From NCBI GenBank assembly GCA_046582655.1, contig JAYGDX010000027.1, positions 77,902 through 141,901 of the forward strand: DNA of 64,000 nucleotides, in the 5' to 3' direction. Under the pieces are notes generated by a model, which saw only the letters and a list, made by a program, of their open reading frames with translations, was not told where the DNA came from and searched no databases. Below are positions 4,139 through 63,646 of this stretch, in pieces. Origin of the DNA: Candidatus Poribacteria bacterium. GTDB lineage: Bacteria; Poribacteria; WGA-4E; UBA9662. Numbering within the stretch: position 1 is the stretch's first letter; the number at the start of each line of letters is the position of its first letter. A program made the translations under genes and the position numbers.

Positions 4139-4200
4139 GTTCCTAAAAACGTTCTTGATCTCGCTATAGATTCAGATTGGATGAATAGAAAGGATCTGTA

Positions 4201-5703: not shown

Positions 5704-5839
5704 TGTTGCGGTCTCCTTGATTTGGGTTGAAATGTAAATGCTATTTTGAGCCAATTCCATTAGAGTTGTAACCACCAAAGATCTGATTAACAATGTAATG
5801 AACTGATTCTGAACCATTTGTGTATTCGGCGAATTTAAC

Positions 5840-6106
5840 TTAAGACTTTATATTTTCAGTCCGGTCGATTTCAGCCAAAATTCCACCGCCAATCCCTTCA
5901 AAGCAGTGGCGTGATTTTCTGCAACCATCTGGTGAAACAAAATCGTCATCTGGTCCAACAGCTGTCATGGTACAGTTGCACCAGTAGTATGAATCAGGAT
6001 TGGTTTCAATTAGGTTCTTTAAACTTCCACCCGGAATATAGAGTGCTTTTGTACGAAGATTTTGGCAGACCGGATGGTGAAGAGATAATAATTTCTTGTC
6101 TTCCAT
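5840..6106 (-). CDS. Small Cys-rich hypothetical protein in the molybdoenzyme operon
   Basis: CQNLRTKALY...YYWCNCTMTAVGPDD...CRKSRHCFE; directly downstream of the FAD subunit; probable start MEDKK at 6106. Confidence 0.7.
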   Translation of the reverse strand: MEDKKLLSLHHPVCQNLRTKALYIPGGSLKNLIETNPDSYYWCNCTMTAVGPDDDFVSPDGCRKSRHCFEGIGGGILAEIDRTENIKS

Positions 6107-6123
6107 TTTGTTGTTAAGTCCTT

Positions 6124-7101
6124 TCAAGCAATGGCCGTCATGGCAGCACGATAGATGATATTTTCTGTCAATTGAACTTTATAGGCATTATCACTTAAAG
6201 GATCGGCGTCTTTAATTGCAATCCGCCCAGCCGCTTTAGCTGTTTCTTCTATAATCGTTTGGCCTTTTAATTCCGCTTCCGCCCCCCTTGATCGCCACGG
6301 AATCGGAGCAACTCCACCCAAAACGATACTCGCATTCTGGCATTTTTGACCGTTGATTTCAAAAACGGCAGCGACACTGACTAAAGCAAAATCGAATGAT
6401 CCCTTTTCCCTAATCTTGATATATAAACTTCTAGCACTAGGCTGTGGTTTGGGAATATGAATCTGGGTGATAATTTCATTCGGTTCAAGAACATTTTCGC
6501 GCTGTGGATTGAGATCTGGTAAAACAAAAAACTCCTCTAGCAGAATCGTTCGATCCCCGTTGGTCCCCTGGATGGTTACTGAGGCTCCGAGAGACACCAG
6601 AGCCGGTGCCACATCTGACGGATGAACAATATAAACTGGGCCTCCGCCAAAGATAGCGTGATATTTATTTAAACCGGAAAGTGCGTAACATGTATCTCCA
6701 CCTTTTTTTAGGCAGATTGTGTCCGGATCACGGTAATACCAACAACGAGGACGTTGGCATAAGTTGCCACCAACGGTACCGACGTTTCGAATTTGCGGTG
6801 TCGCTACAGCCGCTGCCGCTTGAGCCAGAACCCCGTAATTTTCTTGGACCTCTGAATGATCGGCAAGTTCCGAAAGTGTTACCAGAGCGCCAATTGTAAC
6901 TCCTGATGTCTTAACTTCAATTTTGTCTAAGTCAGGAATGGTTTTGAGATTAACTAATTTTTTCGGCGTCTCAATATAATCCTTCATTTCACCGACTAAA
7001 TCCGTTCCGCCAGCAATAACCTTGGTGTTTTCCCAACTGCTATCTAATAACGTTGGAACCTGATTGACGCTTTTTGCATTCACATAACTAAATTTTTCCA
7101 T
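6124..7101 (-). CDS. Xanthine dehydrogenase/aldehyde oxidoreductase family FAD-binding subunit (PaoB/YagS-like)
   Basis: IAGGTDL, ATPQIRNVGTVGGNL, Cys-containing insert, HPSD, LGGVAPIPWR, NAYKV. Confidence 0.92.
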   Translation of the reverse strand: MEKFSYVNAKSVNQVPTLLDSSWENTKVIAGGTDLVGEMKDYIETPKKLVNLKTIPDLDKIEVKTSGVTIGALVTLSELADHSEVQENYGVLAQAAAAVATPQIRNVGTVGGNLCQRPRCWYYRDPDTICLKKGGDTCYALSGLNKYHAIFGGGPVYIVHPSDVAPALVSLGASVTIQGTNGDRTILLEEFFVLPDLNPQRENVLEPNEIITQIHIPKPQPSARSLYIKIREKGSFDFALVSVAAVFEINGQKCQNASIVLGGVAPIPWRSRGAEAELKGQTIIEETAKAAGRIAIKDADPLSDNAYKVQLTENIIYRAAMTAIA

Positions 7102-7103
7102 AA

Positions 7104-9215
7104 TTATGCTTTACCTTTCTCAGCAAGTGTCGTTAAGACTTTATCGGGAGTGATCGGTAGAGATCTAATCCGTACCCCAATCGCGTTGTAAACTGCATTG
7201 GCGATGGCGCCAGCGGTCGGAATTGTAGCGGGTTCCCCAATACCAGTAACTTTCTGATCCGTATCAAACGCAATGGCTTTAATTTCTGGAATTTCAGTTG
7301 GCCCTGCAATCTTGTAATCAATTAGATTTGAATTTATCATCCGACCTGTTTGCGGATCCATAATACGATTTTCAAGAAGCGCGTAACTTAATCCACCCAC
7401 AACGCCACCGTTGATTTGACTTTCGGTGGTAAGCCGGTTTAGAATCAGACCGCAGTCTTGAACAGCCACAATTTTTATTGCCGTGACATGACCCGTTTCC
7501 GTGTCAACTTCAACTTCGGCGAATTGTGTGCCAGCCGCCCCACCTTCCCGAAGGTCTTCTGCCCAGTGCCCCTCTTCGGTAATTGTATCCATGCCCAAAT
7601 GGGCAGTGGCCTGCTGCCAACTCATTTCCTCACCTGATTTAGTCAAGATTTTTCCACCTTTGGCCACAAGATCTTGAGGAGATTGATCAATCTGTTCAGC
7701 AAGATATTCAAAAAAACTGTTCTTGGCTGTAACAGCGGCTGTTTTAATCACCGGAGCGACAGAAGCCGTAGTTTGGCTGCCTCCACTTCCTCCTGAAGGC
7801 AACCCGGGTGCGGTATCACCAATCTTAACGGAAATATGGTGTGGTTGTAACCCGAGTTCGTCGGCCACAATAATTGCGATCACAGTTCGGATTCCAGTTC
7901 CAAGGTCCTGTGTACCGGTAACAGCTTCAATAGTACCGTCTGCGTGAATGCTCACACGGGCTTTGGTGCCTTTACCTCCACCACCACCCCACTGACCGCT
8001 GCCCATACCAATTCCGCGCTTCTTGATACCTTTGTCGGATCCAGGGATTTTACGACGCCGATGCCAACCGATCTCTTTGGCACCTAGCACATATTCATCC
8101 TGCCGGATCTGATTGTCGTCATTCTTCTGGCGAATCTCCAGCGGATCGATACCAAGTTTCTCCGCTATTTCGTCCATTAGCGAATCCATGGCAAAGGCGC
8201 CTTGCGGATGACCCGGAGCACGAAAAGCTCTAGCACCGCCTGTATTAGTCGCAACTGAAAATTTTTCTGTCCGGTAGTTAGGAATATTGTATACATAAGG
8301 GCCGGTGAAACCTGCTCCACCACCATTTCCGGCTGATCCGTAGCCGACTAGATCGTAGGCCATCAGCTTACCGTCTTTGGTAGCGCCAGCTTTGACATGC
8401 TGTGTCATAGAAGGCCGGTTACCAGCCACAAGATGTTCCGCTTTACGCGTCAGCATTAACTTTACAGGCGCTTTAGCTTCCTTAGCTAGTCTTGCTACTG
8501 TTGTGCCTTCGACACCGGGACCAAATTTACTGCCGAATCCACCACCCATATGTTCCGTTATCACCCGAACCTGATCTTCTGGTATCTTGAAATGGTTGGC
8601 AAAATCACGACGTGTTCCAAATACCGCTTGCGTTGAAGCCCACACAGTTAAGTGATCTCCATCCCACTTGGCAACGTGACCATGAGGTTCAAGACAAGTA
8701 TGTGTTTGAACTTGGGTGCTATAAGTTGCTTCCACAATTACGTCCGATTGGGCAAAGCCAACTTCAAGGTCTCCACGGTCATCAATTCGTGGTTTACTCT
8801 GGTTTTTTTCCCAATCACGAATTTGGGGGGCATCATCTCGTCTGGCTCCTTCCAGATCAACTACAAACTCCAGTTCATCGTAGTCAAATTGAATGGCGCG
8901 AATTGCGTCTTCAGCAATATCAGACGTTTCCGCGGCAACAGCGGCAATCTCTTGACCTTCGTATCGAATTTGATCACCTTCTTTGATTAAGGCAATAACT
9001 GCTTTGACACCGGATACAGATCGAGTATTCTCCAAGTTGATCGCGGTTAATATCCCACGAGGTACATGAGATCGCAGAATTCGACCATAAAGCATGCCTG
9101 GCAGATTAACGTCATAGGTATACTTGGCTTTACCTGTAACTTTACCCGGACCTGATAAACGCTGAACATGTTTACCAATTAAACTAGATTCTTTGGGATC
9201 TCCCCATCCAGCCAT
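7104..9215 (-). CDS. Xanthine dehydrogenase family molybdopterin-binding subunit (PaoC/YagR-like)
   Basis: KVTGKAKY, GGGFGSK, FRAPGHPQG, QDLGTG, SQINGG, GIGEP (catalytic Glu). Confidence 0.93.
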   Translation of the reverse strand: MAGWGDPKESSLIGKHVQRLSGPGKVTGKAKYTYDVNLPGMLYGRILRSHVPRGILTAINLENTRSVSGVKAVIALIKEGDQIRYEGQEIAAVAAETSDIAEDAIRAIQFDYDELEFVVDLEGARRDDAPQIRDWEKNQSKPRIDDRGDLEVGFAQSDVIVEATYSTQVQTHTCLEPHGHVAKWDGDHLTVWASTQAVFGTRRDFANHFKIPEDQVRVITEHMGGGFGSKFGPGVEGTTVARLAKEAKAPVKLMLTRKAEHLVAGNRPSMTQHVKAGATKDGKLMAYDLVGYGSAGNGGGAGFTGPYVYNIPNYRTEKFSVATNTGGARAFRAPGHPQGAFAMDSLMDEIAEKLGIDPLEIRQKNDDNQIRQDEYVLGAKEIGWHRRRKIPGSDKGIKKRGIGMGSGQWGGGGGKGTKARVSIHADGTIEAVTGTQDLGTGIRTVIAIIVADELGLQPHHISVKIGDTAPGLPSGGSGGSQTTASVAPVIKTAAVTAKNSFFEYLAEQIDQSPQDLVAKGGKILTKSGEEMSWQQATAHLGMDTITEEGHWAEDLREGGAAGTQFAEVEVDTETGHVTAIKIVAVQDCGLILNRLTTESQINGGVVGGLSYALLENRIMDPQTGRMINSNLIDYKIAGPTEIPEIKAIAFDTDQKVTGIGEPATIPTAGAIANAVYNAIGVRIRSLPITPDKVLTTLAEKGKA

Positions 9216-9227
9216 TATCTTGTCTCC

Positions 9228-9875
9228 CTAATTTCTCATTTTTTTGGATGCAGTTTTAACAGCGTCGAAGATAAAAGGATAAGTACCGCAACGGCAAACG
9301 TTCCCAGATAACCCTTCTTGTATTTCTTCATGGGTCGGGGTAGGATTCTGATCTAGAAATGCTTTAGCGGCAACAACAAACCCGGGTGTACAGAATCCAC
9401 ACATCAATGCGTCATGCTCAACAAAAGCTTCTTGAACAGGATGCAAGTTATCCTGACCTGCCAGCCCTTCAACAGTTGTAATCTTTTTTCTTCCAATATC
9501 AACAGCAAGCATCATGCAGGCATAGATAGGTTTCCCTTCCACAATCACCGTGCAACCTCCACACGAACCACGGTCACAAATCGGTTTGGCACCAGTCAGA
9601 TCTAGGCGATTTCCACTGATATCAAAACCATCTCGTAGAACAGTTAAGAGGGTTGTACGCGGTTCAACGTCAACCTGATGAGCCGTGCCATTAATATTGA
9701 GAGTAACGGTGGTTTGGGTAATTCCATCGATGGTGTCTGCACGTGAAGTTTCTTCTGATCCAACCAGAACAGCCGGAGCCACGCTGGCAGCTACCGCACC
9801 ACTTCCAATTCCTTTGAGGAAGCCTCGGCGGGAAACACCCTCTCTTTCTCCTACTAATTCTTTTTCTTTTGACAT
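9228..9875 (-). CDS. 2x[2Fe-2S] subunit with twin-arginine signal (PaoA/YagT-like)
   Basis: SRRGFLK Tat motif; CDRGSCGGC..C and CGFCTPG..CRC cluster ligands. Confidence 0.93.
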   Translation of the reverse strand: MSKEKELVGEREGVSRRGFLKGIGSGAVAASVAPAVLVGSEETSRADTIDGITQTTVTLNINGTAHQVDVEPRTTLLTVLRDGFDISGNRLDLTGAKPICDRGSCGGCTVIVEGKPIYACMMLAVDIGRKKITTVEGLAGQDNLHPVQEAFVEHDALMCGFCTPGFVVAAKAFLDQNPTPTHEEIQEGLSGNVCRCGTYPFIFDAVKTASKKMRN

Positions 9876-21537: not shown

Positions 21538-22281
21538 TTAGTTGCCTTCTCCTGTTCTGAGTTCGTAGACAACTAAAGCTGCTGCCACGATTGCTGCTGT
21601 TTCCGTACGAAGAATATTAGTACCTAGAGATACTGGAACGCAGTTTTCAGCCAGCGCAGCCTCATTTTCCTGATTGGTGAACCCTCCCTCTGGTCCAACC
21701 AAGACAGCTACTGAATCCAATGAACCGAAACCGCGCAGGACAGATTGTATTGACCTTACTTTCTCATTTTCGTAAAGTATGATTGCTTCATCAAAGCCTC
21801 CGACCGATAGTAAGCACTCTGTGAAACTCTGGATTTGAAGTATTTTAGGAAATCTTAATCTGCGACACTGCTTGGTGGCTTCATTTGCGATTCGTTGCCA
21901 GCGAGTATTCTTCTGTATATGGGTTGAAGGTTTCAAGTTGATGATAGATCTATCTGTGACCATCGGAACAATCTGGTCAACGCCAATTTCTGCTGTCTTT
22001 TGCATAACAAGACCCATTTTGCTAGGTTTGATTAGTGCTTGAAAGAGAGTGACGCTTGGCGAACTTGGAGGATTAAACCCTTGATTGATAATCTCAGCAG
22101 AGATTTTGTTTTCATCAACATATTGAAGTGTGGCAATGTAATAATTGCCATTATCATCAAGAAACCGTACCTGGTCTCCTTGCTGCATCCGTAAAACTGT
22201 GGTGATGTGTTTTTGTTCCGAAGCACTACATCGAATTTTATTGCCATCAATTTGATCTGACGAAATTATGAAATTACGCAC
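21538..22281 (-). CDS. rsmE: 16S rRNA m3U1498 methyltransferase
   Basis: HITTVLR, QKTAEIGV, EATKQC, VGPEGGF, LGTNILRTETA. Confidence 0.95.
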   Translation of the reverse strand: MRNFIISSDQIDGNKIRCSASEQKHITTVLRMQQGDQVRFLDDNGNYYIATLQYVDENKISAEIINQGFNPPSSPSVTLFQALIKPSKMGLVMQKTAEIGVDQIVPMVTDRSIINLKPSTHIQKNTRWQRIANEATKQCRRLRFPKILQIQSFTECLLSVGGFDEAIILYENEKVRSIQSVLRGFGSLDSVAVLVGPEGGFTNQENEAALAENCVPVSLGTNILRTETAAIVAAALVVYELRTGEGN

Positions 22282-43386: not shown

Positions 43387-44616
43387 TCAATATGTGTTTG
43401 CTAGTGCGTTTGCCACTTTATTGATGGCTGTGGCCATATCGTTGATATCGGATACGTCCATGTGTTCGTGGATTCCCATTACAGCTACCGTGCCAAGTCC
43501 ATGAACAGCATTGGGTACTAATTCTGGACCATAATGATACTGGCGCGAGACGTAGGGACTGTTAAATGGGAAACCGCTGTTTCCATAGGTTTTCCCCTTG
43601 GTCAGAAATCCGCCGCGCATGTAGATTGGGTCTTTGATGTAATGAGGTGACACCGGAACACCTTCAGCGGTGACGGCACGACAGAACTCCCCTGCATCAT
43701 GTTTAGTAATGTGGAAGATATAATTCCACCAAGATACTTCCCTATCTTGTGGCAGAGGCACAGTTTCGATCCCTGGTGCCTCTGCGATCTGATTGGTGAG
43801 TCGTTTGCCCAGTGTCGCACGACGTTCGACTACTGATCGGACTTTTTCCAGTTGGGCAATACCAACGGCACCTTGCATTTCGGTCATTCGGTAGTTTGGG
43901 GCTAAAAAGGCATGATCGCGATCGCCCATATACTGATAGTCCCAGCCTTTATCGGAAAACAACTTGAGTCGGATATAAGTGTCTTCATCATTGGTGATGG
44001 TAAACCCACCATCACCAGTGGTCATATGTTTGGACTGCTGAAGGCTGAAACAGCCCATGTGACCGAATGTACCGGCATAGCGACCTTTGTATTTGGTAGC
44101 GTGAGTTTGACTACAATCTTCGATCAAGATCAAATTGTATTTTTCGGCAATTTTGATAACCTGGTCGATTTCACAAGGATGACCGAAAAGGTGTACCAAG
44201 ACGATGGCACGGGTTCGGTCGGTAATGTTGGCTTCTATGGAGTCTGGTATCATGTTCAGCGATAGAGGATCGACATCGGCAAAAACGGGCACCGCATTCT
44301 GTATTAGGATTGGCATTACACTACCGGGATCAGTAATAGGGGCAGTGATGATCTCGTCACCTGGTTCGGGGTCAACAACGCCAATTGCTGTGTGAATGGC
44401 TGCTGTCCCACTGGTCGAGGCCTGGGCATGATTTGTGCCGTAAAAAGTGGCAACTCGCTGTTCAAATTCTTTGACAAAGGTGCCACTTTTGCCAAACAAG
44501 TTTTGGCTCCGTACGGCCTGCAAGAGCAATTCTTCCTCTCTTTTTCCAAACGGCGTCCGTCTGGGAAACGGAGTGTGTCGCACTTTTTCTCCACCATTAA
44601 TGGCTAGTGTTGTCAT
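43387..44616 (-). CDS. DegT/DnrJ/EryC1/StrS aminotransferase
   Basis: LAINGG, TSGTAA, IEDCSQ, FSLQQSKHMTTGDGG, NYRMTE. Confidence 0.93.
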   Translation of the reverse strand: MTTLAINGGEKVRHTPFPRRTPFGKREEELLLQAVRSQNLFGKSGTFVKEFEQRVATFYGTNHAQASTSGTAAIHTAIGVVDPEPGDEIITAPITDPGSVMPILIQNAVPVFADVDPLSLNMIPDSIEANITDRTRAIVLVHLFGHPCEIDQVIKIAEKYNLILIEDCSQTHATKYKGRYAGTFGHMGCFSLQQSKHMTTGDGGFTITNDEDTYIRLKLFSDKGWDYQYMGDRDHAFLAPNYRMTEMQGAVGIAQLEKVRSVVERRATLGKRLTNQIAEAPGIETVPLPQDREVSWWNYIFHITKHDAGEFCRAVTAEGVPVSPHYIKDPIYMRGGFLTKGKTYGNSGFPFNSPYVSRQYHYGPELVPNAVHGLGTVAVMGIHEHMDVSDINDMATAINKVANALANTY

Positions 44617-44773
44617 GACTGTACCAAAGTTGAGTTTTTCTTATTCTACCAGATATTATCAGATAGGACAATTATCTATAGAAGAAGGTTAATACATGAT
44701 AATATTTAGGATAAAGGCCTCTCAACTTTAGAGTAAATATTATCATGAGTAATATGTTCCAGGACGTAAAGAT

Positions 44774-46078
44774 ATGAAAGTCGCATTCGGCAAGGTTTCA
44801 ATCACGCCGCCCATCAATAACACCTTTCCCGATTTTTTCTTTCAGCCGGAGGGTGTGTTGGACGAGATTTACGCCAGAGCGGCTATCCTAGATGCAGGTT
44901 CGTCACCAGTCATCATCGTGGCATTGGATGTTCTTGGCGTTGGTGTAGCCGAGGTTGCGGACTTAGAGACAGCTCTCTCCGACAAAATCGGGATTGCTAC
45001 TGAGCGGGTATGGATAGCTGGAAGTCACAGTCATTCGGCACCAATTTTGTGCCCAATTGATCTCTATGGCGGATTCAGCCCTTATTTAACCGGACTGAAA
45101 GATCGTCTGGTCAGCTTAATTGACGATTTATTGCTTCGGTTGCAACCTGTCACTATCCATTTCGGTCGATCGACCTGCGACTTTAACGTCAATCGTCGCC
45201 GGATTGATGAAAACGGCAACTGCAGTATGGCTCCTAATCCGAATGGGATAGTTGATAAAAGTGTGCCGGTGATTAGCTGTCGCAATGTTGACAACACTCT
45301 GATCGGTGTCCTCTTCAGTTACTGTTGTCATCCGACCATTCTACTGGGGCCCAAAATTTCCGGCGACTATCCAGGTTGGTCACAACTCATACTGGAAGAA
45401 GAATACGACTCGGCAGTGGCTCTATTTCTTCCCGGTGTTTTTGGTAATGTTAGACCTCATCTCGACGCAGGAGATCGTTTCCGGTCAGGAACCGAAGCAG
45501 ATGTTATCTCATGCGGTCAGGAGTTGGCGGAAGCCGTGCAGGACGGTCTGCAAAATTGTCGCGATCTGTCGATTGATACCATCCACACTTGGCGAAGTAA
45601 ACCTCAACTGCCGATTGCCAACCCACTATCAAAAGATGAACTGGACCAGATAGCAACCCAGTCAATCAAATCTCAAAGACAGAGCGATTCGCCTGGGTTT
45701 TGGAAAGGTGGATTTCATGTTGCCCAACGACAATGGGTACAGCAGGTTCGATTAGAACAAGCAGAGGACCGTGTGTCAACTCATCAACCCTACACTTTTT
45801 CAAGGTTGCAACTGGGTGAGTTGAATTGGATTGGACTGTCTGGTGAGTTCTTCTTGGAATACGGTGTTTATGCCCAGCAGCTAGGAGATGCTGAGACCAC
45901 ACTGGCATTCGGGTACACGCAGGGATGCCAAACCTACGTGCCGACAGCCGAAGCCCTGACGCAAGGTGGATATGAAGTTGAGGCTTACAAACGCTGGAAA
46001 CAGAGTGCTCCCTTCGAGCCAGAAGTGGAAGAAGTGGTCAAAAAAGCTATTGCCGATCTGATGGTACGTCAACCTTAA
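44774..46078 (+). CDS. Neutral/alkaline ceramidase-like hydrolase
   Basis: ITPP, SHSHSAP, VNRR, YCCHPT, ISGDYPG, GEFF, YVPT..GGYE. Confidence 0.8.
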   Translation: MKVAFGKVSITPPINNTFPDFFFQPEGVLDEIYARAAILDAGSSPVIIVALDVLGVGVAEVADLETALSDKIGIATERVWIAGSHSHSAPILCPIDLYGGFSPYLTGLKDRLVSLIDDLLLRLQPVTIHFGRSTCDFNVNRRRIDENGNCSMAPNPNGIVDKSVPVISCRNVDNTLIGVLFSYCCHPTILLGPKISGDYPGWSQLILEEEYDSAVALFLPGVFGNVRPHLDAGDRFRSGTEADVISCGQELAEAVQDGLQNCRDLSIDTIHTWRSKPQLPIANPLSKDELDQIATQSIKSQRQSDSPGFWKGGFHVAQRQWVQQVRLEQAEDRVSTHQPYTFSRLQLGELNWIGLSGEFFLEYGVYAQQLGDAETTLAFGYTQGCQTYVPTAEALTQGGYEVEAYKRWKQSAPFEPEVEEVVKKAIADLMVRQP

Positions 46079-46089
46079 CTATTTTGAAT

Positions 46090-46660
46090 TGATGTTAATG
46101 TTGTGATTTGATAAACAATGAAATCGATGGTAATGCAGTGGCATGAGGGGGAGATTGTTGGTTTCTTATCAGGGGCTGACCCTGGTCGTAAATATCAGCA
46201 TAGTGATTTTATAGAACAGATGTCAAGTTTGAATCGAATGCTCAGTTTGCGGCTTCATTAGATAGCAATGTTGAAATGGTGCGGATGCTGGAGATTGGGA
46301 CCACGCCCTGCGGGGAACTTGACAAGATTGAGGCGGGTCCCGTGGTTAGTGCGCATTGGTTGCCAAGCATACTGATTGGGAAATCCAAGTTCATCATACG
46401 TGCCAGAAGGAATTCGATGGCTCCGGATATGTGCAATAACGGTCTTTTGCTGGTTGACCCAGCACATGAGGTCAATAACGATGATTTTTCATCGTGCAAG
46501 TTAATGACGAAATTACTGCTATGGGAGTGATACAGCCAGGAAATCGCATGATTTTGATGCCACATAGAGATCAAATGGTTATGGTCAACAGAAATTCGGT
46601 TATGTTACCACCATGATTCGAACATTCAGCAGGTTAATGCAGACATGGATAGCTAAAAGA
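46090..46660 (+). pseudogene. Probable decayed gene, possibly GNAT-like
   Basis: Coding-like fragments (HEGEIVGFLS; FFIVQVNDEITAMGVI) broken by stops; identity uncertain. Confidence 0.25.
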
Positions 46661-46701
46661 GGAACGGAACCGAGACAATTTGCAAATAAAAATACTCTGC
46701 C

Positions 46702-47625
46702 GTGCGAAATAATTCATCGGTCTTTCAATTCGGGCTAATCTCAGATATTCATAAGGATGTTATCCATGATGCGGACGGTCGTCTGCGCACCTTTATCCAG
46801 TCTGCGCAGACCAATCAGGTAGATTTTATCCTACAGATGGGAGACTTTTGCATCCCAATCCCAGAGAATCTGCCTTTTTTGGATATCTGGTACCAGTTTG
46901 AAGGACCCAAATATCATGTTCTTGGCAATCACGATATGGATGGTGATGGGCACCAAAAGCCAGATGGAGCTTACGCATTCACGCCAGAAGAAACAATGAC
47001 CTTCTGGGGAATGCCGACGAGGTACTATGCTTTTGATCATGCAGGCGTTCATTTTATAATCTTAGACGGCAACGACAAACCTGTAGATCCAAGTGGTTAT
47101 TATGAATATATTGCACCAGATCAAATTGATTGGCTAAAATCGGATCTGACCAACACAGACCTTCCTGTAATCATCTTTTGTCACCAAAATCTAGCCCGCC
47201 AGGACGGTTTGGTCAATCAGCCGGAAGTTCACGCTGTTTTTGATGGTGCCAATAAACAAGTGGGGAAATCAAAGATAATCGCCTGTTTTACCGGCCACGA
47301 CCACCGAGACTACGTACGTCAACTGGATGGGATTATCTATGCTCAGATCAATAGCGCCTCCTACCACTGGTTGGGAGGTGATTACATTTGTCAAAGGTAT
47401 AGCCAGAAGATCGATGTCCAGTACCCGTATATCAAGTATACTTTGCCTTACAGAAATGCACTTTATGCTATCGTAACAGTCAACATGGCTGAGCGATTCA
47501 TCAAGATTGAAGGTATAGAAAGCGAATTTGTCGGTCCACCTCCTTGGGAATTGGATGATACGCCCAAGAATTTGGATACTGAATCATTAAATCCTGCAAT
47601 TTCAGGTTGGCAGTTATCATTCTGA
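46702..47625 (+). CDS. Calcineurin-like metallophosphoesterase
   Basis: SDIH, MGDF, LGNHD, FCHQ, GHDH. Confidence 0.9.
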   Translation: MRNNSSVFQFGLISDIHKDVIHDADGRLRTFIQSAQTNQVDFILQMGDFCIPIPENLPFLDIWYQFEGPKYHVLGNHDMDGDGHQKPDGAYAFTPEETMTFWGMPTRYYAFDHAGVHFIILDGNDKPVDPSGYYEYIAPDQIDWLKSDLTNTDLPVIIFCHQNLARQDGLVNQPEVHAVFDGANKQVGKSKIIACFTGHDHRDYVRQLDGIIYAQINSASYHWLGGDYICQRYSQKIDVQYPYIKYTLPYRNALYAIVTVNMAERFIKIEGIESEFVGPPPWELDDTPKNLDTESLNPAISGWQLSF

Positions 47626-47803
47626 TGGCGATATGGTGAAAAATAAGCGTGTATGAATACTCTGCTGTGGAATCTATTTTGAACGGATTGATTGACTGAA
47701 TATGGGTTATGAAAGGTGTTGGCATATGTCAAACAGATGGAAACATCCTGCATGATTATCATTCGTTATATTCAAATATAAAGGTGGTTGAGGAAAGTCT
47801 CAA

Positions 47804-49012
47804 ATGAATGAAAAGCAACGTCGAGATATTCTTAAAATGTATAGACCCCAACAATTGTTTCCTGCCGAACCCAACTTGGGAGCTTGGTACACAGAAGAAG
47901 AGGTAAAGGTTGCCACAAAGGCCATTCGTGATTCCATGGACTGGCGGATTGGATTTGGATTCATCGTTGATGAAATCCTTGACTTCGAGCAGTCCTTTGC
48001 CAATTATTGTGGCACTGAATTCGCAATTTCACTTAGTACTGCGAGTGTTGGACTCGATCTAGCGATGGGCAGTCTTGATTTGGAACCAGGAGATGAGGTT
48101 ATCTGTCCAGCTATCAATTTCAAAGCGTCACCGCTAGCTGTGTTGGGGCAACGAGCGAATCTGGTGTTTTGCGAGATCGACCCACGCACTTTTAACTGTG
48201 ACCCTGCTGACCTTGAACAACGGATTACTCCGAAAACACGAGCGATCTTTCCAGTTCACATGAATGGTCTTTCTGCACCAATGGATGATCTATTGGATAT
48301 CGCCGAGTGTCATCCACACCCGATTCACGGCCCTCTGAAAGTGATTGGCGACGCAGCCCGTGCTTGTGGTGGTGGATATAAAGAAACCAAGGTTGGAAAG
48401 AAAGGTTGGATGAACGTGTTCAGCTTCCACACAATGAAACTGATGACGACGCTTGGGGAGGGTGGTATGATTACTACAGATGATGCAGAATTGGCAAAAC
48501 GCTTACGCGGGATTCGGCAGTGGGGCAATGATTCTGGAACTTGGGGATCAAGCTATAAGATGACCAAAGTGCAAGCGGCTGTAGGGAGCGTGCAGTTACG
48601 TCGTCTTGATGCTATGATCGAGCAACGTGTGAAACGCGCCCACGACCGCTTGCAGATGTTAGAAGGGATACCGGAACTTACTTTAACATTTGAACCGCCA
48701 GACTGTGATCATACATTCTATTTATTTACGCTGTTAGTTCCCCCCAAATGGGGAGGAGAAAAGCGGGATCGGCTTTGTCAAATGCTTCGGGAGGAATATA
48801 ACGTTGGCACGATGGTGGCAAATCCTCCTGTTTGGGAAGCCCAACCGTACATTCATGCGCAAACCGCCGGTCAGATAGAAACGCTCCCAGTCTCGGTGGA
48901 AACGGCGAAACGATTATTTTGTATCTCGTTGCATCCATTAATGAATGAGGAGGAAAACACATATGTCGCCGCTGCCATTTGGGATGCAGTTGAGAGGGTG
49001 AGAAAGATATAG
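47804..49012 (+). CDS. DegT/DnrJ/EryC1/StrS aminotransferase
   Basis: PGDEVICP, PVHMNG, DAARACG, FSFHTMKLMTTLGEGG, YKMT. Confidence 0.92.
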   Translation: MNEKQRRDILKMYRPQQLFPAEPNLGAWYTEEEVKVATKAIRDSMDWRIGFGFIVDEILDFEQSFANYCGTEFAISLSTASVGLDLAMGSLDLEPGDEVICPAINFKASPLAVLGQRANLVFCEIDPRTFNCDPADLEQRITPKTRAIFPVHMNGLSAPMDDLLDIAECHPHPIHGPLKVIGDAARACGGGYKETKVGKKGWMNVFSFHTMKLMTTLGEGGMITTDDAELAKRLRGIRQWGNDSGTWGSSYKMTKVQAAVGSVQLRRLDAMIEQRVKRAHDRLQMLEGIPELTLTFEPPDCDHTFYLFTLLVPPKWGGEKRDRLCQMLREEYNVGTMVANPPVWEAQPYIHAQTAGQIETLPVSVETAKRLFCISLHPLMNEEENTYVAAAIWDAVERVRKI

Positions 49013-49189
49013 ATTTTTGGGTGCTAATCGCAATTGTCGCTAACAGAAATATCTTCCTTACTTCATTGGAGAGGGCGGCATCATACAAATCCGAACGGGT
49101 GCTTGATGGAATTGTTGTTCAGGGATTAAACATAGTCTTGACCAAGAAGTTTATTTTATAAAACTAGTATTTATTCAATTGTTATTGTC

Positions 49190-49880
49190 ATTTGAGTACC
49201 ATATGGCCCGAATGTCTGATTAGGTTTTAGACAAAGAAGTTGCAGCATGGTACTCGCCTGATTCTGTTTACAGTTTAACGTCTCACCCATTTGGCACGCT
49301 TCATATTGGACATCAGCAAGTTAGTAAGTTGTGCTCTCTCCAAAACAATCAGGAATGATGGCGTCAACTGGAGATTGACCATGTCCAGCTTTTGGTTGAC
49401 GATCTCTCTTGCATCTACTATCATCAACGTGAGTAGGAACTTCCAGACCTACTGAGTTCATCTATCTAAATGGTCTCCACTTATAGAATACCTATTAGAT
49501 ACTCCTAGATGTATAATAAATTTACTGTCATAATCGGGCCGGATATAACCATCCGCGACTTGCTAGAACTAGATGAAGTCTTCCGGTCTAGATCCTTGTC
49601 CGGATGCACACTGAGCGACACCGAAATCTGTAACTCAAATTATTGCTGAACCGGATTTAGACCACTGTCCAATTGGATTCTTGTTTCAGGAAGAGGACCC
49701 TACACTGAGAAGAAGAACACTATTTCGTTGGAAGGGGAGGCCTCTACCTGTGCCTGATTGAGGGTAAGGAGGACAAAAAGGGGGCTTTTTAATGCCAAGA
49801 GTGAGGGTGCAATTATCACTCAGGATGGTGTTTGATAGACCACCGAATGGAAGCATGTGTACGAAATTTATCCCCGGTGC
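49190..49880 (-). pseudogene. Heavily decayed enolase-superfamily (epimerase/cycloisomerase-like) gene
   Basis: Ordered minus-strand fragments GTGRGLP, GYIRPDYD, EVPTHVDDS, AREIVNQKLDMVNLQL, QMGET, HAATS in shifting frames; boundaries approximate. Confidence 0.35.
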
Positions 49881-49988
49881 ATTGCCAACGTGGATGACAA
49901 GTATTGTAATGATGCATGAAGCGACTTGATTTTCCGTAGTCAAGATATAAGGCGCGATTATCTTGCTACTAACTTCAGAGGACAGGAA

Positions 49989-51722: not shown

Positions 51723-51880
51723 GAGCCTGTTGGAAGGTGTGATTTATAAAAGTAAGGATCACGTTTTAAGGTAATCAACCATATGGTAGTAAGAAGGACG
51801 GGCAGCGGGTATAATCAACTGAGGTCGGATGTACGCCTTACATCCGTCAACTTTAGTTGGCTCGATTCCAGCAGGCACTC
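51723..51880. repeat. Structured intergenic element (MITE-like or ncRNA)
   Basis: Ends GCCTGTTGGAA and TTCCAGCAGGC pair; internal perfect hairpin CGGATGTA-cgcct-TACATCCG; preceded by hairpin TTGGGCTG..CAGCCCAA (51693-51718). Confidence 0.45.
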
Positions 51881-51942
51881 ATTTAAACCTGCTTAGTTGT
51901 TCCCGATCCAAATTATTGCCCTCAAGGTGAGATCTGAGACAG

Positions 51943-52905
51943 GTGAAAGATAATCACGTACAGTTTGCCGTAGTCAGAGAAGACCCGAAAATAGAGGCGG
52001 AATTAGTTTGCTTACACCAAGTTAGCGAAGTGCTATTGATTGCCTCTGGTGGCTGTACAGCACTGACACTACAGGCATTGTTTCCTGATCTGCGTTTAAC
52101 CCTTCTTGATCTCAATCCAGCACAATTGGAGTTAATCAAGAAAAAAAGGCAGGCACTCACTGACACAAATATACGCCCCCACGCCTTCAATATCGGGACA
52201 AGCGATTCAAGGGGACTCAATCAGTGTGGAAACTTTGAATCTCTATTTCGGGGATTGCGTGAGTTTATCTTTGACCTAGTGGCTGACGAAGAGCAGGTTC
52301 GAGCGTTGTTTGAGGAGAGAGGTGGGCTTAAACGTGCCACGGAACTTCTCTTTTCGAACAGATATTGGCCAGTAGCGTTCGATCTGTTTTTTAGCGATTC
52401 ACTTCTAAACACGATGTTTGGACCCAATGCGACGCAGCATGCGAAGCCCGGAAGTTACCCAAAATACTTTCAGAAATTATTTGAAAAAGGGCTGATGTCT
52501 GACCAGGCATTCGACAATTATTTTCTCCACCATGTTTTTCTTGGGTACTATCTCGATCGGCCCACCAGCCTACCGCACTACCTGACTGTCTCACCACCCG
52601 ATTATCACTTTCAGATGGTGGAAGGGACACTCGATCAGGTTTCCGACTTAGGTTGTTTCGATCTGATTAGCCTATCCAACATCATGGACTGGATGTCACC
52701 GGCTGATATCACCACCCTTTTGGTTAAGCTTCAAAACCAGATGAAGTCGGGAGCGATTGTTCTTTATCGCCAACTCAATAATCCTATAGATCTGGAGACT
52801 GAATTCGGTGATTCATTTCAGTTTGATCCAGCTTTGGGAAATAGGCTATTGGAAGCCGAACGAAGCTTATTCTATTCTAGCATTCACGTCGGGAAAAAGA
52901 GGTAA
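51943..52905 (+). CDS. DUF3419/BtaA-like SAM-dependent transferase (putative 3-amino-3-carboxypropyl transferase)
   Basis: FAVVREDP.IE, LIASGGCTAL, LDLNPAQL, GNFE, FDLISLSNIMDWM are BtaA/DUF3419 hallmarks. Confidence 0.8.
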   Translation: MKDNHVQFAVVREDPKIEAELVCLHQVSEVLLIASGGCTALTLQALFPDLRLTLLDLNPAQLELIKKKRQALTDTNIRPHAFNIGTSDSRGLNQCGNFESLFRGLREFIFDLVADEEQVRALFEERGGLKRATELLFSNRYWPVAFDLFFSDSLLNTMFGPNATQHAKPGSYPKYFQKLFEKGLMSDQAFDNYFLHHVFLGYYLDRPTSLPHYLTVSPPDYHFQMVEGTLDQVSDLGCFDLISLSNIMDWMSPADITTLLVKLQNQMKSGAIVLYRQLNNPIDLETEFGDSFQFDPALGNRLLEAERSLFYSSIHVGKKR

Positions 52906-52911
52906 CTGGCT

Positions 52912-53625
52912 ATGAACACACTTATTAAACAGATCTTGAAAGAAACAAATCCGCAAATGAATCCATACTTTGTATCTTTGCGAAATGGTACTTTTGACAA
53001 AGATGATTTTGTCGAAACACAGATTCAATTCTATTTTGCTGTAGTGTTCTTCAATCGTCCAATGGCAGCAATTGCAGCCAAGATTCCGGAAGCGGAATTG
53101 CGCTTAGAGGTTATTCGCAATGTGTGGGAGGAACATGGAGAAGGTAATCCATCGCTGATGCATGGAAACACATTTCTAGCGTTCCTAGATCGACTAGCAG
53201 AGATTAACCTCGAAGACATTGCGGTACGGGCAATGTGGCCCGAAGTTCGTGCTTTCAATACGACACTTGTTGGTGCTTGCGTGATGGATGAGTACCTGAT
53301 TGGCGTTGGGGTCTTGGGGTTCATCGAACTTATATTCTCAGACATTGCGGGATGGATCGGGCAAGAAATTGTGAATCACGGTTGGATTTCGGCAGAACGA
53401 TTGATTCACTATAATCTGCATGAGGATCTGGACGTTAAGCATTCAGACGATTTTTTTGATGTGCTTCGTCCACCATGGGAAGCTGATGTCGAAAATCGCT
53501 ACTATATTGAGCAGGGACTGCGTCTTGGCGCATTCATCTTCAATTCGCTTTATGAAGATCTTTACAATGCACGAACGCGTAGAATCTTTCGCGATGTGCG
53601 TGGACCACATACGCGAGCGTCGTAG
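52912..53625 (+). CDS. Heme-oxygenase-like diiron oxidase (HDO; PqqC/CADD/TenA fold)
   Basis: NVWEEHGEG..H, FIE, HYNLHEDLDVKH metal-ligand pattern. Confidence 0.85.
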   Translation: MNTLIKQILKETNPQMNPYFVSLRNGTFDKDDFVETQIQFYFAVVFFNRPMAAIAAKIPEAELRLEVIRNVWEEHGEGNPSLMHGNTFLAFLDRLAEINLEDIAVRAMWPEVRAFNTTLVGACVMDEYLIGVGVLGFIELIFSDIAGWIGQEIVNHGWISAERLIHYNLHEDLDVKHSDDFFDVLRPPWEADVENRYYIEQGLRLGAFIFNSLYEDLYNARTRRIFRDVRGPHTRAS

Positions 53626-53646
53626 TATACTTTAGATTGGGACTGT

Positions 53647-54468
53647 GTGATGCAGAAGCGTCCTTTCAATATCCGAGGATTACGGGAAAGTGATTGGGAA
53701 ATTTTTCAGGATCGTATTGCGGACTTGGAAAAGGGAACCAGCTATCCATTAGGCGGCGATCGGTTTGAGATTGATCACGGTAAAAATTACTTTGCATTCT
53801 TTACTCGTCTAGGCAAATTACACTACTACGTTGTACTCGATGGAGAAAAAGTCATAGCAGTAGCCGCTGCAATCCTGCGTCAAATACAGCCCATTGGGAG
53901 TGAAAAGCCCAAAAAGGTATGGTACCTTTGTGATTTGAAAGTGCGGCCAGAATCGCGCGGGCAGTACATCCCATTCAAGATGTTTGTCTGTGCCGTTCCA
54001 AAACATTATCTTCTCTGCCCACGTGGGTATGCCATATCGATGGATACGGGTATCGGACGTAAAAATCTTGTCGCGCTTATGCTGACACGATTCCCATTGG
54101 TACCAATTTCGATTGCAACGAAGCTAGGTATCGTCTCTTTAGATTGCGAAAGAATGCGGTCCGTTGAACCAGTCCTACGAGAGTATCTCGGATCTGTGTC
54201 TTATCTTTCGCTGGAAGGGAAAAAGGACATCATCTTGGAAAGTACGCAATCCCCTATGCCACTGCTACATGTTCAGTTCGGTCATTGTGCCCAGCAGGGA
54301 TATCCCGAACCGCTTGATGGTTATACACATATGTTATGTGCACCCATCGATGACCCTTTGCTTAAAGCATTGAGTTATCAAGCAATTTATCCATCTGCCA
54401 CCGCAACAGTGATTCATCACCGTATGGAGGATTGGGACTGGCGATTTATACTCACCAGTGATATCTGA
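53647..54468 (+). CDS. GNAT-fold acyltransferase
   Basis: YYVVLDGEKVIAV..ILR, VWYLCDLKVRPESRG (acyl-CoA-binding motif A). Confidence 0.7.
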   Translation: MMQKRPFNIRGLRESDWEIFQDRIADLEKGTSYPLGGDRFEIDHGKNYFAFFTRLGKLHYYVVLDGEKVIAVAAAILRQIQPIGSEKPKKVWYLCDLKVRPESRGQYIPFKMFVCAVPKHYLLCPRGYAISMDTGIGRKNLVALMLTRFPLVPISIATKLGIVSLDCERMRSVEPVLREYLGSVSYLSLEGKKDIILESTQSPMPLLHVQFGHCAQQGYPEPLDGYTHMLCAPIDDPLLKALSYQAIYPSATATVIHHRMEDWDWRFILTSDI

Positions 54469-56053: not shown

Positions 56054-56256
56054 AAGTATTTGACCAGCTATATTCATCACGTGGCTTAGTAAGGTGAGCA
56101 GCGGCAAGATCGTAGCGAGCCAGTCCGGTTCAGAAATGCCTGGATGCGTCATGTGAAAAGTTACAACGAATGCCAAGACTTAAACCTTCTTGGCTGGATT
56201 AGAGGTTGTTGGCCAACTACTGACAACCTTATTTTTTCATGGATTGGCATCATCGC

Positions 56257-56285
56257 TTGACACTGATTAGCCCAAATGCTAGAAT
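56257..56285 (+). promoter_or_regulatory. Sigma70 extended -10 promoter
   Basis: TTGACA-17 bp-TAGAAT with TG at the extended position. Confidence 0.6.
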
Positions 56286-56385
56286 CGAATTTGTTAGTTA
56301 AATAATATAGCATCTACAAGCCAGGACTGGATCTTGACCCCCATTTTACTCTGATCAACACGGGTGGGAATACTTTCTGGGCTTA

Positions 56386-57469
56386 GAAACGCAGATCTCC
56401 CAACCCTTGATTATCCAATCAATTGATTTGTTTCAATTTCATGAGGTTTACTTGATGCTGGCCATTAGTCAGAATGGTGTTGTCGGAATTGCTACTACCC
56501 ATACCAGAGTTTGTTATTGGTTGCCGATGCTCAAAGATCTAGTTGTACTGGCCTTTATTGGACAGGATGCTCGACACTTAGAACAACTTGTTAATCGTGT
56601 TTATGTCTACCAAAACAATTACAAGTACCGAGGTTCTCCCTTCTAGACCTGTGTGGCCTATGTCGAGGCTAGCCTATGGGACCTGTTAGGGCAAGCGACT
56701 GATCGATCGGTAAGTCAATTAATGGGCGGTGCTTAGCGAACAGAAATGCCTACTTATCTATCGAGTGTGAGACAGGATACCACTCCATAGGAAGAGATCA
56801 ACTAGATTGGACAGCGCTTGGTGGAGACAAAGGTTAAAGCAGTCAAGATGATAATCGGTGGGCGAATACAGAACAATGTTGACTCGATGTCAAATCGCAT
56901 CAAGAAGCTAATCTTGCTGGTGCGTAAAACCTGAGGGTCGGAGATTATCCTCTACGTTGATGCCAATGGTTCCCACGGCCATCAAAAGGAAATTGAAGTG
57001 GGCAAATTTTAGATGCTAACAACTGCAGTTGATTTAGGAACCGTGTCCGCTTGAGCTGTATAAAGCCACATGCAAGGTCGGGATGTGGCTGGTGGTGAAC
57101 AGAACTGTAACTTGGGACAGTTCCGACTCATGATCCGCGATCGCTACGTGAATGTGATTCACCCCGATCTGGTGTATAATAGAGGATTAATTTGTACCTT
57201 ACAGTGGGCTAAGTGGCAGAAGTGGCAGGCATCCCATTGTGCCTTATAGTTCGAAGCATAATCCAGAACTGGCAACACTGCTTCATTTTGCTGTTGTTTG
57301 TTGGCACACGGGGCCGTTCATGGAGTTTCCTGCACGTTCGGTGACATACGATGATTGGTACCAGCCACAATTCAGAATTGAATCTGGTGGATTGGTTGAG
57401 GTTCCCACTGGACTAGGATTGGGGATTTCCTACGATCCGTTGATTTGAGATGCAGTTGCTGAAGTCTAA
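56386..57469 (+). pseudogene. Mandelate racemase/muconate lactonizing enzyme pseudogene
   Basis: FIGQDAR, VEASLWDLLG, AVKM, YVDANGS, AGGEQ, HPDL, EVPTGLGLG with multiple in-frame stops and frameshifts. Confidence 0.85.
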
Positions 57470-57541
57470 CCAGAGATCGAACTCAAATTCAAGCACTCGG
57501 AAAACGAGATTCGGTGATAGAAATAACTTTAGGAGGAAAGC

Positions 57542-62357: not shown

Positions 62358-62506
62358 GACAATTTATAATATCGTCATTAATTATTAAATCTGATTTTTA
62401 TACTTGCGCCAACTATTAAATCTAAAGTATGCTATTTTTACAGTTGCCGATATCTCCTTTCATTTGCCGCATATATCCTTCATCCTTCAACCTGCGGATT
62501 CTCACG

Positions 62507-63646
62507 ATGGCTACACTAATCCAAACTGAAAACACCGACCAGAGCATACACTCCGACCAGGGTGCGCTTTCCTATCAGGAAGTGCTGACCGAAGGGCCAA
62601 AGTATAATGTGCCACCCCAAAAGACACGCGTGAAATGGTATCGTTGCCACGTCGCGCGCGAAACGTTACGCGAACTCAACAGGCGCAGAAATTTTCTTGG
62701 ATTCGCACAAACGCTCGGGTTTCTAGGGGTGTTGGCTACCGCCTCGGGCGTTGCCATCTATGCTTCGTTCCACTGGCCTTGGTATGTCACGGTGCTGCTG
62801 GTGTTTGTTAACGGCCACTTCTGGCATTTTCTAGTCAACGGCTTCCATGAGTTGGTCCACGACTCGGTCTTCAGTACCCGATGGCTCAACCGATTTTTCC
62901 TTCGTATCTTCTCATTCTTGGGCTGGTATAATCACCATCTGTTCTGGGCCAGCCATACTGAGCACCACAAGTATGCTCTGCATCCTGAGCACCACAAGTA
63001 TGCTCTGCATCCGCCCGACGATCAGGAAGTGGTGTTTCCCCAGAGGATCGACCTGAAAAACCTCTGGAAGAAGAGCATCATAAACTACCGATATCCCGAC
63101 TCTCTACTCAGGAACAAGTTTCGAAACTTTATCGGGTACCTTGATACGGACAGCCCATGGATTGCCTCGCTCTTTCCCGAAACCGACCCGGAGCGGCGCC
63201 GCGCCTACACCAACTGGGAACGCATTGTGCTGATTGGTCACCTGTTGATTGCAGGTGTGTCTCTGGCGTTCGGATACTGGGTCGTTCTCCTGGTGATTAC
63301 CTTCCCAAAAACGTTCGGGGCGTGGCTACAATTCCTCTGCAATACCGCCCAGCACGTGGGGCTTCAGGACAAGGTGTCGGACTTCCGCCTGTGTAGCCGG
63401 ACGATTTATCTCAACCCGATCCTCCAGTTCCTATACTGGTACATGAACTACCACATCGAGCATCACATGTACGCCGCGGTTCCATGCTATAAGCTCGGTC
63501 GGCTGCACAGGCTAATCAAGCACGAGATGCCGCATTCCATCCGGGGTTTGCGTGAGACGTGGAAACACATCGCCGAGATCCTAGAGCGGCAGGAACACGA
63601 CCCCGATTACCAGTACGTCGCCGAGTTGCCCACGCTCGATATATAG
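62507..63646 (+). CDS. Membrane fatty acid desaturase family protein
   Basis: His boxes HELVH, HTEHH, YHIEHH; AVPCYKL..LH; TM segments. Confidence 0.88.
   Translation: MATLIQTENTDQSIHSDQGALSYQEVLTEGPKYNVPPQKTRVKWYRCHVARETLRELNRRRNFLGFAQTLGFLGVLATASGVAIYASFHWPWYVTVLLVFVNGHFWHFLVNGFHELVHDSVFSTRWLNRFFLRIFSFLGWYNHHLFWASHTEHHKYALHPEHHKYALHPPDDQEVVFPQRIDLKNLWKKSIINYRYPDSLLRNKFRNFIGYLDTDSPWIASLFPETDPERRRAYTNWERIVLIGHLLIAGVSLAFGYWVVLLVITFPKTFGAWLQFLCNTAQHVGLQDKVSDFRLCSRTIYLNPILQFLYWYMNYHIEHHMYAAVPCYKLGRLHRLIKHEMPHSIRGLRETWKHIAEILERQEHDPDYQYVAELPTLDI
62958..63011 (+). repeat. Exact 27-bp tandem duplication inside the desaturase
   Basis: CTGAGCACCACAAGTATGCTCTGCATC twice, giving EHHKYALHP twice. Confidence 0.95.

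Follow-up and report, generated by a model that had tools for sequence, protein, structure and literature searches.

We identified a compact unit of three genes in a 64-kb stretch of DNA from a Candidatus Poribacteria genome (contig JAYGDX010000027.1; the whole stretch is referred to as the window). The unit encodes a short transferase of the DUF3419/BtaA family dependent on S-adenosylmethionine (SAM) (gene 1, P0001), a haem-oxygenase-like diiron oxidase/oxygenase (HDO; gene 2, P0002) and a tandem-GNAT acyltransferase (gene 3, P0003). The three genes are a conserved, self-contained and horizontally mobile biosynthetic unit which is present in at least eight bacterial phyla and in giant viruses. 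The trio probably makes an acylated, oxidised amino-acid-headed lipid or metabolite. The preliminary description of the window had proposed the trio as an undescribed minimal pathway, with an aminolipid, a hydroxamate and an oxyvinylglycine-like compound as candidate products, and the proposal of such a pathway is supported by the recurrence of the three-gene unit across phyla. Our searches of the literature on DUF3419, on HDOs in combination with aminocarboxypropyl transfer and on HDO-GNAT clusters found no description of the trio. In the available part of a 2026 review on HDOs (PMC13108848), the terms 'acetyltransferase' and 'S-adenosyl' have 0 occurrences and a pairing with DUF3419 or GNAT proteins is not mentioned, and in the available part of PMC7923214 DUF3419 appears merely as a flanking gene. 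The trio is built from known superfamilies; the combination of the genes appears to be new, and their viral distribution is unexpected.

A search of a large protein collection with P0003 yielded 224 relatives at E<=1e-3, a few of which are named 'GNAT family N-acetyltransferase' by their source. With an alignment of 15 diverse GNATs as query, a scan that covered each species by one genome gave 148 relatives, and the best 80 of these 148 loci were kept. The presence of the genes at the 80 bacterial loci was scored by tblastn with the three proteins of the window (E<=1e-5). Co-occurrence elsewhere had been named as the key test in the preliminary description, and all three genes were found together in 69 of the 80 loci. 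Seven of the 11 incomplete loci are cut by a contig end (L011, L039, L056, L058, L062, L065, and L073); in the others the GNAT gene stands alone (L054, L074) or the HDO gene is missing (L066, L081). By their labels, the hosts include Poribacteria, Planctomycetota, Myxococcota, Bdellovibrionota, Pseudomonadota (Burkholderiales and others), Cyanobacteriota (Pseudanabaena, Leptolyngbyaceae), Chlamydiota and Acidobacteriota. The order DUF-HDO-GNAT is found in 55 of the 69 complete loci and HDO-DUF-GNAT in 12 (cyanobacteria and some Myxococcota), while GNAT-DUF-HDO (L071, Chlamydiota) and a divergent arrangement (L076) occur once each. Clustering thus survives rearrangement, and chance does not account for an arrangement that recurs this often (69 of the 80 loci). 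All-versus-all clustering of 2,595 flanking ORFs (open reading frames) revealed no fourth gene family that is common beyond Poribacteria except antisense shadow ORFs, and a Pfam search of 71 flanking ORFs gave heterogeneous families, most of them unrelated to lipids.

The pairwise distances of the three families across 73 loci are correlated (r 0.96, 0.91, and 0.87; Mantel p 0.001), a correlation to which species history contributes. In-frame fusions were absent from the 80 loci; long 'fused' ORFs seen in L073, L081, and other GC-rich loci were rejected as frame-overlap artefacts of ORF calling. A GNAT profile search against 1.84 billion library representatives returned 867 members at E<=1e-3 (255 at E<=1e-30), and one such representative, P0314 (487 aa), is an HDO (41-198) fused to a GNAT (223-487). 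These data bear on the view that an ordinary BtaA, a CADD-like p-aminobenzoate (pABA) synthase and an unrelated acetyltransferase are neighbours by chance. In favour of it, each of the families is common on its own and the genome has a second DUF3419 gene. It is nevertheless refuted for practical purposes by the recurrence of the locus in four gene orders, by the viral loci and by the correlated distance matrices, and the existence of the HDO-GNAT fusion, the lack of a conserved methyltransferase partner and the distance of the HDOs from CADD (both described below) also argue against it; we give it practically no weight.

A concatenated-trio tree was made by quick maximum likelihood from 49 of the 73 rows, after 24 near-identical Poribacteria rows were dropped. 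It contains a viral clade (support 100), a clade of the HDO-first type (74) and a clade of the DUF-first type (100). Phyla are intermixed within the DUF-first clade, which points to horizontal spread. Within Poribacteria, the GNAT gene is present in 38 of 176 genomes and in 4 of 31 genera. Broken GNAT remnants were found in four genomes of this phylum (G068:C68:2124-2540, G064:C3:2533-2928, G152:C1:2213159-2213562, and G157:C2:4577907-4578125); they are C-terminal fragments, several with internal stop codons. Together, the limited presence and the remnants indicate that the module is accessory and sometimes lost.

An ESM Atlas look-up with P0003 pointed to Nucleocytoviricota, and this lead was then tested. 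A scan of IMG/VR for the GNAT gave six viral loci, of which five have all three genes, with a GC content of 22-32%; L086 and L087 are identical in sequence, and the sixth locus (L091) has a GNAT gene without visible partners on a 6-kb contig. The major capsid family of nucleocytoplasmic large DNA viruses was matched in 5 of 5 viral records searched, and in two records a single contig (529,694 and 956,726 nt) carries both the capsid gene and the trio. In three distinct viral loci (L086, L088, and L089) the trio adjoins a gene for a mimivirus-type poly(A) polymerase, and TFIIS is also among the gene-expression genes around the viral trio. The viral GNATs end in LTSDI, LTSEI, or SSEI. A 2026 preprint that refers to both giant viruses and betaine lipids mentions, in its available part, no virus-encoded BtaA-like gene. 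Two further observations concern individual viral loci. In L090 a 310-aa ORF (5391-6323) without a Pfam family lies between the HDO and DUF3419 genes and might be a virus-specific fourth component. In L091 (1663-4890) the viral GNAT gene adjoins genes for a patatin-like phospholipase and two glycosyltransferases, GT11 and GT25.

P0001 matches the Pfam family DUF3419 (PF11899) with an E-value of 4.3e-25 and 89.1 bits, against a gathering cut-off of 28.2. The match is in two pieces, model positions 9-78 and 126-383 of 385, and positions 79-125 are skipped. Type-B, chlamydial and viral DUF3419 partners reach 56.7-135.4 bits against PF11899, and the type-B relatives cover positions 9-382. In the AlphaFold2 model (pLDDT 93.5), P0001 adopts a class I methyltransferase (SAM) fold that carries a large helical insert. 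The residues R12-E13-D14, S35-G36-G37 (the glycine-rich SAM motif), S245-N246, D249-W250, and R276/N279 are invariant in all 19 members that were aligned, both bacterial and viral. To our knowledge, the sole characterised DUF3419 activity is that of BtaA, the transfer of an aminocarboxypropyl group onto diacylglycerol, the lipid on which BtaA reportedly acts. P0001 resembles BtaA of the BtaA/BtaB system for the betaine lipid diacylglyceryl-trimethylhomoserine (DGTS; Rhodobacter/Cereibacter sphaeroides, and BTA1 of algae and fungi) in its PF11899 membership and its fold. It differs from BtaA in being shorter, with the skipped model positions missing, and the trio has no linked BtaB, its partners being a diiron oxidase and a tandem GNAT.

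The preliminary description had stated that no btaB-like lipid N-methyltransferase and no pqq or folate biosynthesis genes are nearby, and a Pfam search that covered every large ORF of the window (55 in total) confirmed this. The sole methyltransferase among them is an RsmE-type RNA methyltransferase, and the 463-aa gene downstream of the trio encodes a PQQ_2/BamB-like beta-propeller and is not a PQQ synthesis gene. No btaB partner was found in the window, and no methyltransferase family is common to the 80 loci; no genome-wide search for btaB was made. Isolated methyltransferase genes occur near the trio in L040 (on the opposite strand) and in L078, where a PEMT-family gene lies 17 nt upstream. 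That P0001 would merely make the DGTS precursor for a distant btaB product is unlikely, because the distances of its family track those of both partners (r 0.91-0.96) and no methyltransferase is conserved nearby. A tblastn search of plasmids with P0001 gave one distant DUF3419 gene (Mycobacterium plasmid) and no trio. The second DUF3419 gene in the genome of the window (contig C67, locus L002 1260-2367) is closer to the Pfam model. It consists of an 80-aa and a 278-aa ORF in different frames, representing either a frameshifted gene or an assembly error, and its neighbours are not methyltransferases.

P0002 matches the Pfam family Haem_oxygenas_2 (PF14518; E 1.7e-17, 64.2 bits against a cut-off of 28.9). 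In phmmer alignments its residues E74, H84, E139, H170, D174, and H177 fall on the metal-ligand columns of CT610/CADD. This set of six ligands (3-His/3-carboxylate) is invariant in 73 of 73 members, viral HDOs included, and is common to the lysine N6-oxygenases HrmI/BelK and to the HDOs UndA, BesC, SznF, AetD, and PolF. Among solved structures, the best match is to the lysine N-oxygenase HrmI (E 9.9e-5), whose W-x-E-x-G-x-G...H and H-x3-D-x2-H motifs align with P0002. Because this match is only about 25 bits, P0002 belongs to a separate subfamily, in which N70, H166, and Y167 are subfamily-specific invariant residues (n=73). Unlike HrmI and the other HDOs, the trio HDO is always paired with a DUF3419 protein and a GNAT. 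An ESM Atlas look-up with P0002 returned only generic clusters named after HDO, TenA, or PqqC.

A plain CADD-type pABA synthase had been named beforehand as an identity of P0002 that would speak against a new pathway, and this identity was rejected. CADD/CT610 has PF14518 and the six metal-ligand columns in common with P0002, but P0002 reaches 29.2 bits with TIGR04305, 170 bits short of the cut-off of 200, its nearest solved relative is HrmI and it has no folate context. A cyanobacterial trio HDO scores 30.7 bits. In CADD, Lys152 is described as sacrificial and Tyr27 is also assigned a role (available part of PMC13108848). The Lys152 column is occupied by I149 in P0002 and by I, L, or V in 73 of 73 trio HDOs, and the Tyr27 column by F20, the adjacent Y19 being Y in 69 of 73.

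P0003 matches no Pfam or NCBIfam family, so that its GNAT identity is invisible to profile libraries. The label given to gene 3 in the preliminary description is nevertheless borne out by its fold and by weak Acetyltransf_1 matches in relatives, such as the homologue in L051 (24.4 bits against a cut-off of 20.7). A search of the PDB with a P0003 profile gave aminoglycoside acetyltransferases (E 0.007). The AlphaFold2 model is a tandem GNAT (pLDDT 86.2, pTM 0.83). In Foldseek searches with this model, tandem GNATs and N-myristoyltransferases (NMTs) were on top (probability 1.0, E about 5e-7 to 1e-5). The top matches are tandem GNATs of secondary metabolism (2wpw/2wpx of the clavulanic acid pathway, Eis, and MshD-type; E 5e-7 to 8e-7, TM 0.42-0.54), which differ from P0003 in length, are 10-13% identical to it and have no known pathway context in common with it. 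VIA-align comparisons with the NMTs of human, Candida, Leishmania, Aspergillus, and Plasmodium gave Z-scores of 13.3-14.0 over 217-228 residues (rmsd 3.7-4.1, identity 7-10%).

In the model of P0003, as in NMT, two GNAT domains appear in one chain, and the alignment runs to the end of both chains. Residue 273 of P0003 aligns to NMT residues 496, 451, 421, 492, and 410 in the five species, the ends of the aligned ranges, which we take to be the true C-termini; for Gln496 of human NMT1 this is confirmed. P0003 itself ends in LTSDI, and S-[D/E]-I ends 79 of 81 locus-encoded GNATs, the two exceptions sitting at locus ends. Among the 150 best library representatives, 148 end in I, V, L, or F and 117 in [ST][DE][IVL]. 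Longer forms, including the fusion, are extended at the N-terminus only and keep a free C-terminus. Human NMT1 uses the C-terminal carboxylate of Gln496 as its catalytic base (available part of PMC7048800). The fixed C-terminus of the modelled trio GNAT and its likeness to NMT suggest that the C-terminal carboxylate may serve as catalytic base here as well. P0003 differs from NMT in being about 100 residues smaller and in having no match to an NMT Pfam family at E<=0.01. The trio GNAT is moreover bacterial and viral and linked with small-molecule enzymes, and its substrate is probably not a protein.

NMT, the nearest two-domain structural match, acts on proteins, which speaks for the idea that the module modifies a macromolecule, either the N-terminus or a lysine of a protein or a base of tRNA or rRNA. 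Aminocarboxypropyl transfers to tRNA, rRNA, and EF2 are known, and the position of the viral trio among gene-expression genes would also fit. However, the module is dispensable and patchy in one phylum, no conserved target gene lies near the trio, and no characterised HDO or DUF3419 enzyme is known to have a macromolecular substrate. We consider modification of a macromolecule very improbable.

The substrates of the trio must exist both in diverse bacteria and in the eukaryotic hosts of giant viruses, and the module as we picture it would draw only on universal metabolites, with a common acceptor and an acyl donor needed besides SAM and O2. Quite possibly, and this is the reading that we tentatively favour, the product is a diacylglycerol-type lipid whose aminocarboxypropyl (homoserine-type) head group has been N-acylated and tailored by oxidation. 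In a first step, the DUF3419 enzyme would move the 3-amino-3-carboxypropyl group from SAM onto a nucleophile, as BtaA does. The acceptor would most likely be the free hydroxyl of a diacylglycerol-type lipid, for which diacylglycerol is the precedent, and the resulting homoserine-ether head group would be a free alpha-amino acid. In a second step, the HDO would bind this alpha-amino-acid moiety, like nearly all characterised HDOs, and oxidise the head group, with hydroxylation, desaturation, N-oxygenation and C-C cleavage as candidate reactions. In a third step, the tandem GNAT would acylate the alpha-amine in an NMT-like manner from acyl-CoA or acyl-ACP (acyl carrier protein), and the base would be the invariant carboxylate at the C-terminus of the GNAT itself. 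The sequence of these steps is a provisional one. As in the BtaA/BtaB system, an enzyme would act on the newly installed amine, but acylation would stand in for the N-methylation by BtaB of betaine-lipid synthesis, and the head group would be oxidised and not trimethylated. The predicted end product is a phosphorus-free N-acylated amino-lipid, which would be anionic and not zwitterionic because its amine is N-acylated. In its fullest form, the proposal is that of a new phosphorus-free membrane lipid, an HDO-oxidised diacylglyceryl-homoserine-type ether whose amine carries a fatty acyl or acetyl group. The module that makes it would have reached at least eight bacterial phyla and mimivirus-like giant viruses by horizontal transfer, and these viruses would remodel host or virion membranes with it; this complete version we regard as unlikely.

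Several observations weigh against the lipid reading. The structural neighbours of the P0001 model are ordinary methyltransferases, which align over about 150-190 of the 320 residues at Z 10.7-12.8; none of them is outstanding, and MccD (Z 10.8) is one of many. A PDB sequence search with P0001 gave nothing below E 0.32, and no DUF3419 structure was among its matches. Sequence or fold cannot separate aminocarboxypropyl transfer from methyl transfer in P0001, and because no DUF3419 structure is solved and the neighbours of the model are generic, the former activity is read from family membership alone. If P0001 were a methyltransferase, the module might N-oxygenate, acylate and methylate an amine, following the logic of SznE/SznF or yielding an O-methyl hydroxamate. 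The fold and its neighbours agree with such a role, as do the sub-threshold matches to a class I methyltransferase in P0001 and to Methyltransf_12/11/25 in P0001 and its relatives, and the loss of about 47 DUF3419 model positions. We nevertheless think this role quite improbable, given that P0001 lies far above the DUF3419 cut-off, that the type-B relatives span the model to position 382, that the motifs of the DUF3419 family are invariant and that its one characterised member moves the aminocarboxypropyl group.

With respect to gene 3, the single-domain GNAT 1wwz ties with the NMTs (Z 13.6 over 148 residues), and the CoA-binding loop is atypical for a GNAT (R-G-x-R/Y-I-P), so that the donor could be other than acyl-CoA. 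The accessory, patchy distribution of the module is as compatible with specialised metabolism as with a conditional lipid. Hints of lipid metabolism around the trio are sparse: MMPL/RND exporter genes adjoin it in 3 of 80 loci (L035, L038, and L084), the PEMT-family gene occurs in one, and a desaturase-like gene in cyanobacteria only. This last gene, encoding an FA_desaturase-family membrane protein, lies directly upstream of the trio on the same strand in 6 cyanobacterial loci, and its best named relative is GntB (73 bits; cut-off 380). GntB hydroxylates free L-arginine. Because the match is far below the cut-off, the desaturase-like gene gives no clear support to either a lipid or a soluble substrate.

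The foremost alternative is a soluble specialised metabolite, for instance a hydroxamate-type chelator or an oxyvinylglycine-like antimetabolite. The DUF3419 protein would then aminocarboxypropylate a small nucleophile, or the HDO would first oxidise a free amino acid; the HDO would N-oxygenate, desaturate or fragment its substrate and the GNAT would N-acetylate for tailoring or self-protection. Characterised HDOs mostly act on free alpha-amino acids, and BesC, HrmI/BelK, SznF, AetD, and PolF do so in natural-product pathways (available part of PMC13108848). The nearest solved relative of P0002 is one of these enzymes, and the nearest named relative of the cyanobacterial upstream gene also has a free amino acid as substrate. 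The mixing of phyla in the tree, local decay, the soluble appearance of all three proteins and neighbours that are mostly not lipid-related can be counted on the same side. On the other hand, no transporter, regulator, nonribosomal peptide synthetase or resistance gene is conserved beside the trio in the 80 loci, and the exporter, where present, is of the MMPL type. The GNAT resembles the long-chain acyltransferase NMT over both domains, and an antimetabolite or siderophore pathway beside a giant-virus poly(A) polymerase gene is hard to explain. A soluble product made in this manner is on balance somewhat unlikely.

Contigs from 4 metatranscriptome runs (4 studies) cover parts of all three genes, with an identity to the window of >=99% in all pieces but one (95-99%). 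They span the start of gene 1 (51737-51970), the junction of genes 1 and 2 (52851-53089) and that of genes 2 and 3 (53448-53677, reaching 31 nt into gene 3), but RNA-library contigs can contain DNA and a single transcript is not proven by them. Parts of the stretch without RNA-contig cover were given no weight.

If confirmed, the trio would represent a second, non-betaine fate for aminocarboxypropyl transfer of the BtaA type. Its HDOs would form a new subfamily whose fixed partner enzymes make the substrate tractable, and for orphan HDOs it is mainly the search for substrates that holds back progress. The trio would also provide an NMT-style C-terminal carboxylate base in a compact bacterial and viral enzyme, and a new virus-encoded metabolic capability beside core gene-expression genes. 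The module is directly testable because it is small, consists of three soluble proteins, uses universal substrates and is found in cultured Pseudanabaena strains.

The genome from which the window originates has a size of 7.3 Mb in 421 contigs (95.85% complete, 2.59% contamination), and its close relatives are labelled Candidatus Poribacteria. DNA of the window is also present in marine and hydrothermal-vent metagenome runs. The coordinates of the trio and of other features are given in Table 1.

Table 1. Position of the trio and of other features in the window.
Feature	Position	Strand	Length and start	Assignment or remark
Gene 1 (P0001)	51943-52905	+	320 aa, GTG start	short DUF3419/BtaA-family class I SAM-dependent transferase
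Gene 2 (P0002)	52912-53625	+	237 aa, ATG start	HDO
Gene 3 (P0003)	53647-54468	+	273 aa, GTG start, ATG is codon 2	tandem-GNAT acyltransferase
PhyH-family genes	3371-5025			tandem dioxygenase genes
Molybdopterin operon	6124-9875			three subunits, xanthine/CO dehydrogenase-like; strand opposite to the PhyH-family genes
RNA methyltransferase gene	21538-22281			RsmE type
Sugar aminotransferase gene	43387-44616	-		DegT/DnrJ/EryC1
Ceramidase-like ORF	44774-46078			weak match
Metallophosphoesterase gene	46702-47625
Sugar aminotransferase gene	47804-49012	+		DegT/DnrJ/EryC1
Stretch with short ORFs only	49013-49925		913 nt	between the DegT aminotransferase and SelO genes
Enolase-superfamily matches	57064-57445	+	two frames	MR_MLE_C; in the gap 56054-57541, downstream of the trio
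Desaturase-family gene	62429-63646	+	405 aa	FA_desaturase, E 6.9e-23; about 8 kb downstream of the trio

The three genes are intact and co-directional, as had been described from the letters, and the ORF list gives exactly these coordinates with gaps of 6 nt (genes 1 and 2) and 21 nt (genes 2 and 3). The trio measures 2.5 kb, and obvious membrane segments are absent from all three proteins. Between positions 48900 and 57700, an Rfam search (E<=1) matched no known RNA element, and promoter and terminator scans of the locus performed no better than shuffles. The surroundings had been called an otherwise decaying region, which was overstated: one enolase-superfamily remnant and one geneless stretch are present, but the direct neighbours of the trio (SelO, DegT aminotransferase, beta-propeller, and amidase) have their full length when judged from the coverage of the profiles. 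The remnant comprises two frames that match MR_MLE_C, the C-terminal domain of the enolase superfamily, collinearly at positions 98-139 (E 7e-4) and 157-217 (E 1.3e-3), and it looks like a frameshifted pseudogene. In the geneless stretch between the DegT aminotransferase and SelO genes, a Pfam search at E<=0.1 gave nothing but one chance-level match (0.016).

The desaturase-family protein encoded downstream of the trio is weakly similar to the cyanobacterial trio-linked desaturase-like protein (39% over 72 aa), and a similar gene flanks the locus in two Poribacteria relatives (L006 11890-12159 and L031 7769-7954). Upstream, the two DegT/DnrJ/EryC1 genes enclose the ceramidase-like ORF and the metallophosphoesterase gene, and this part of the window (43387-49012) may be a sugar- or lipid-modifying neighbourhood.

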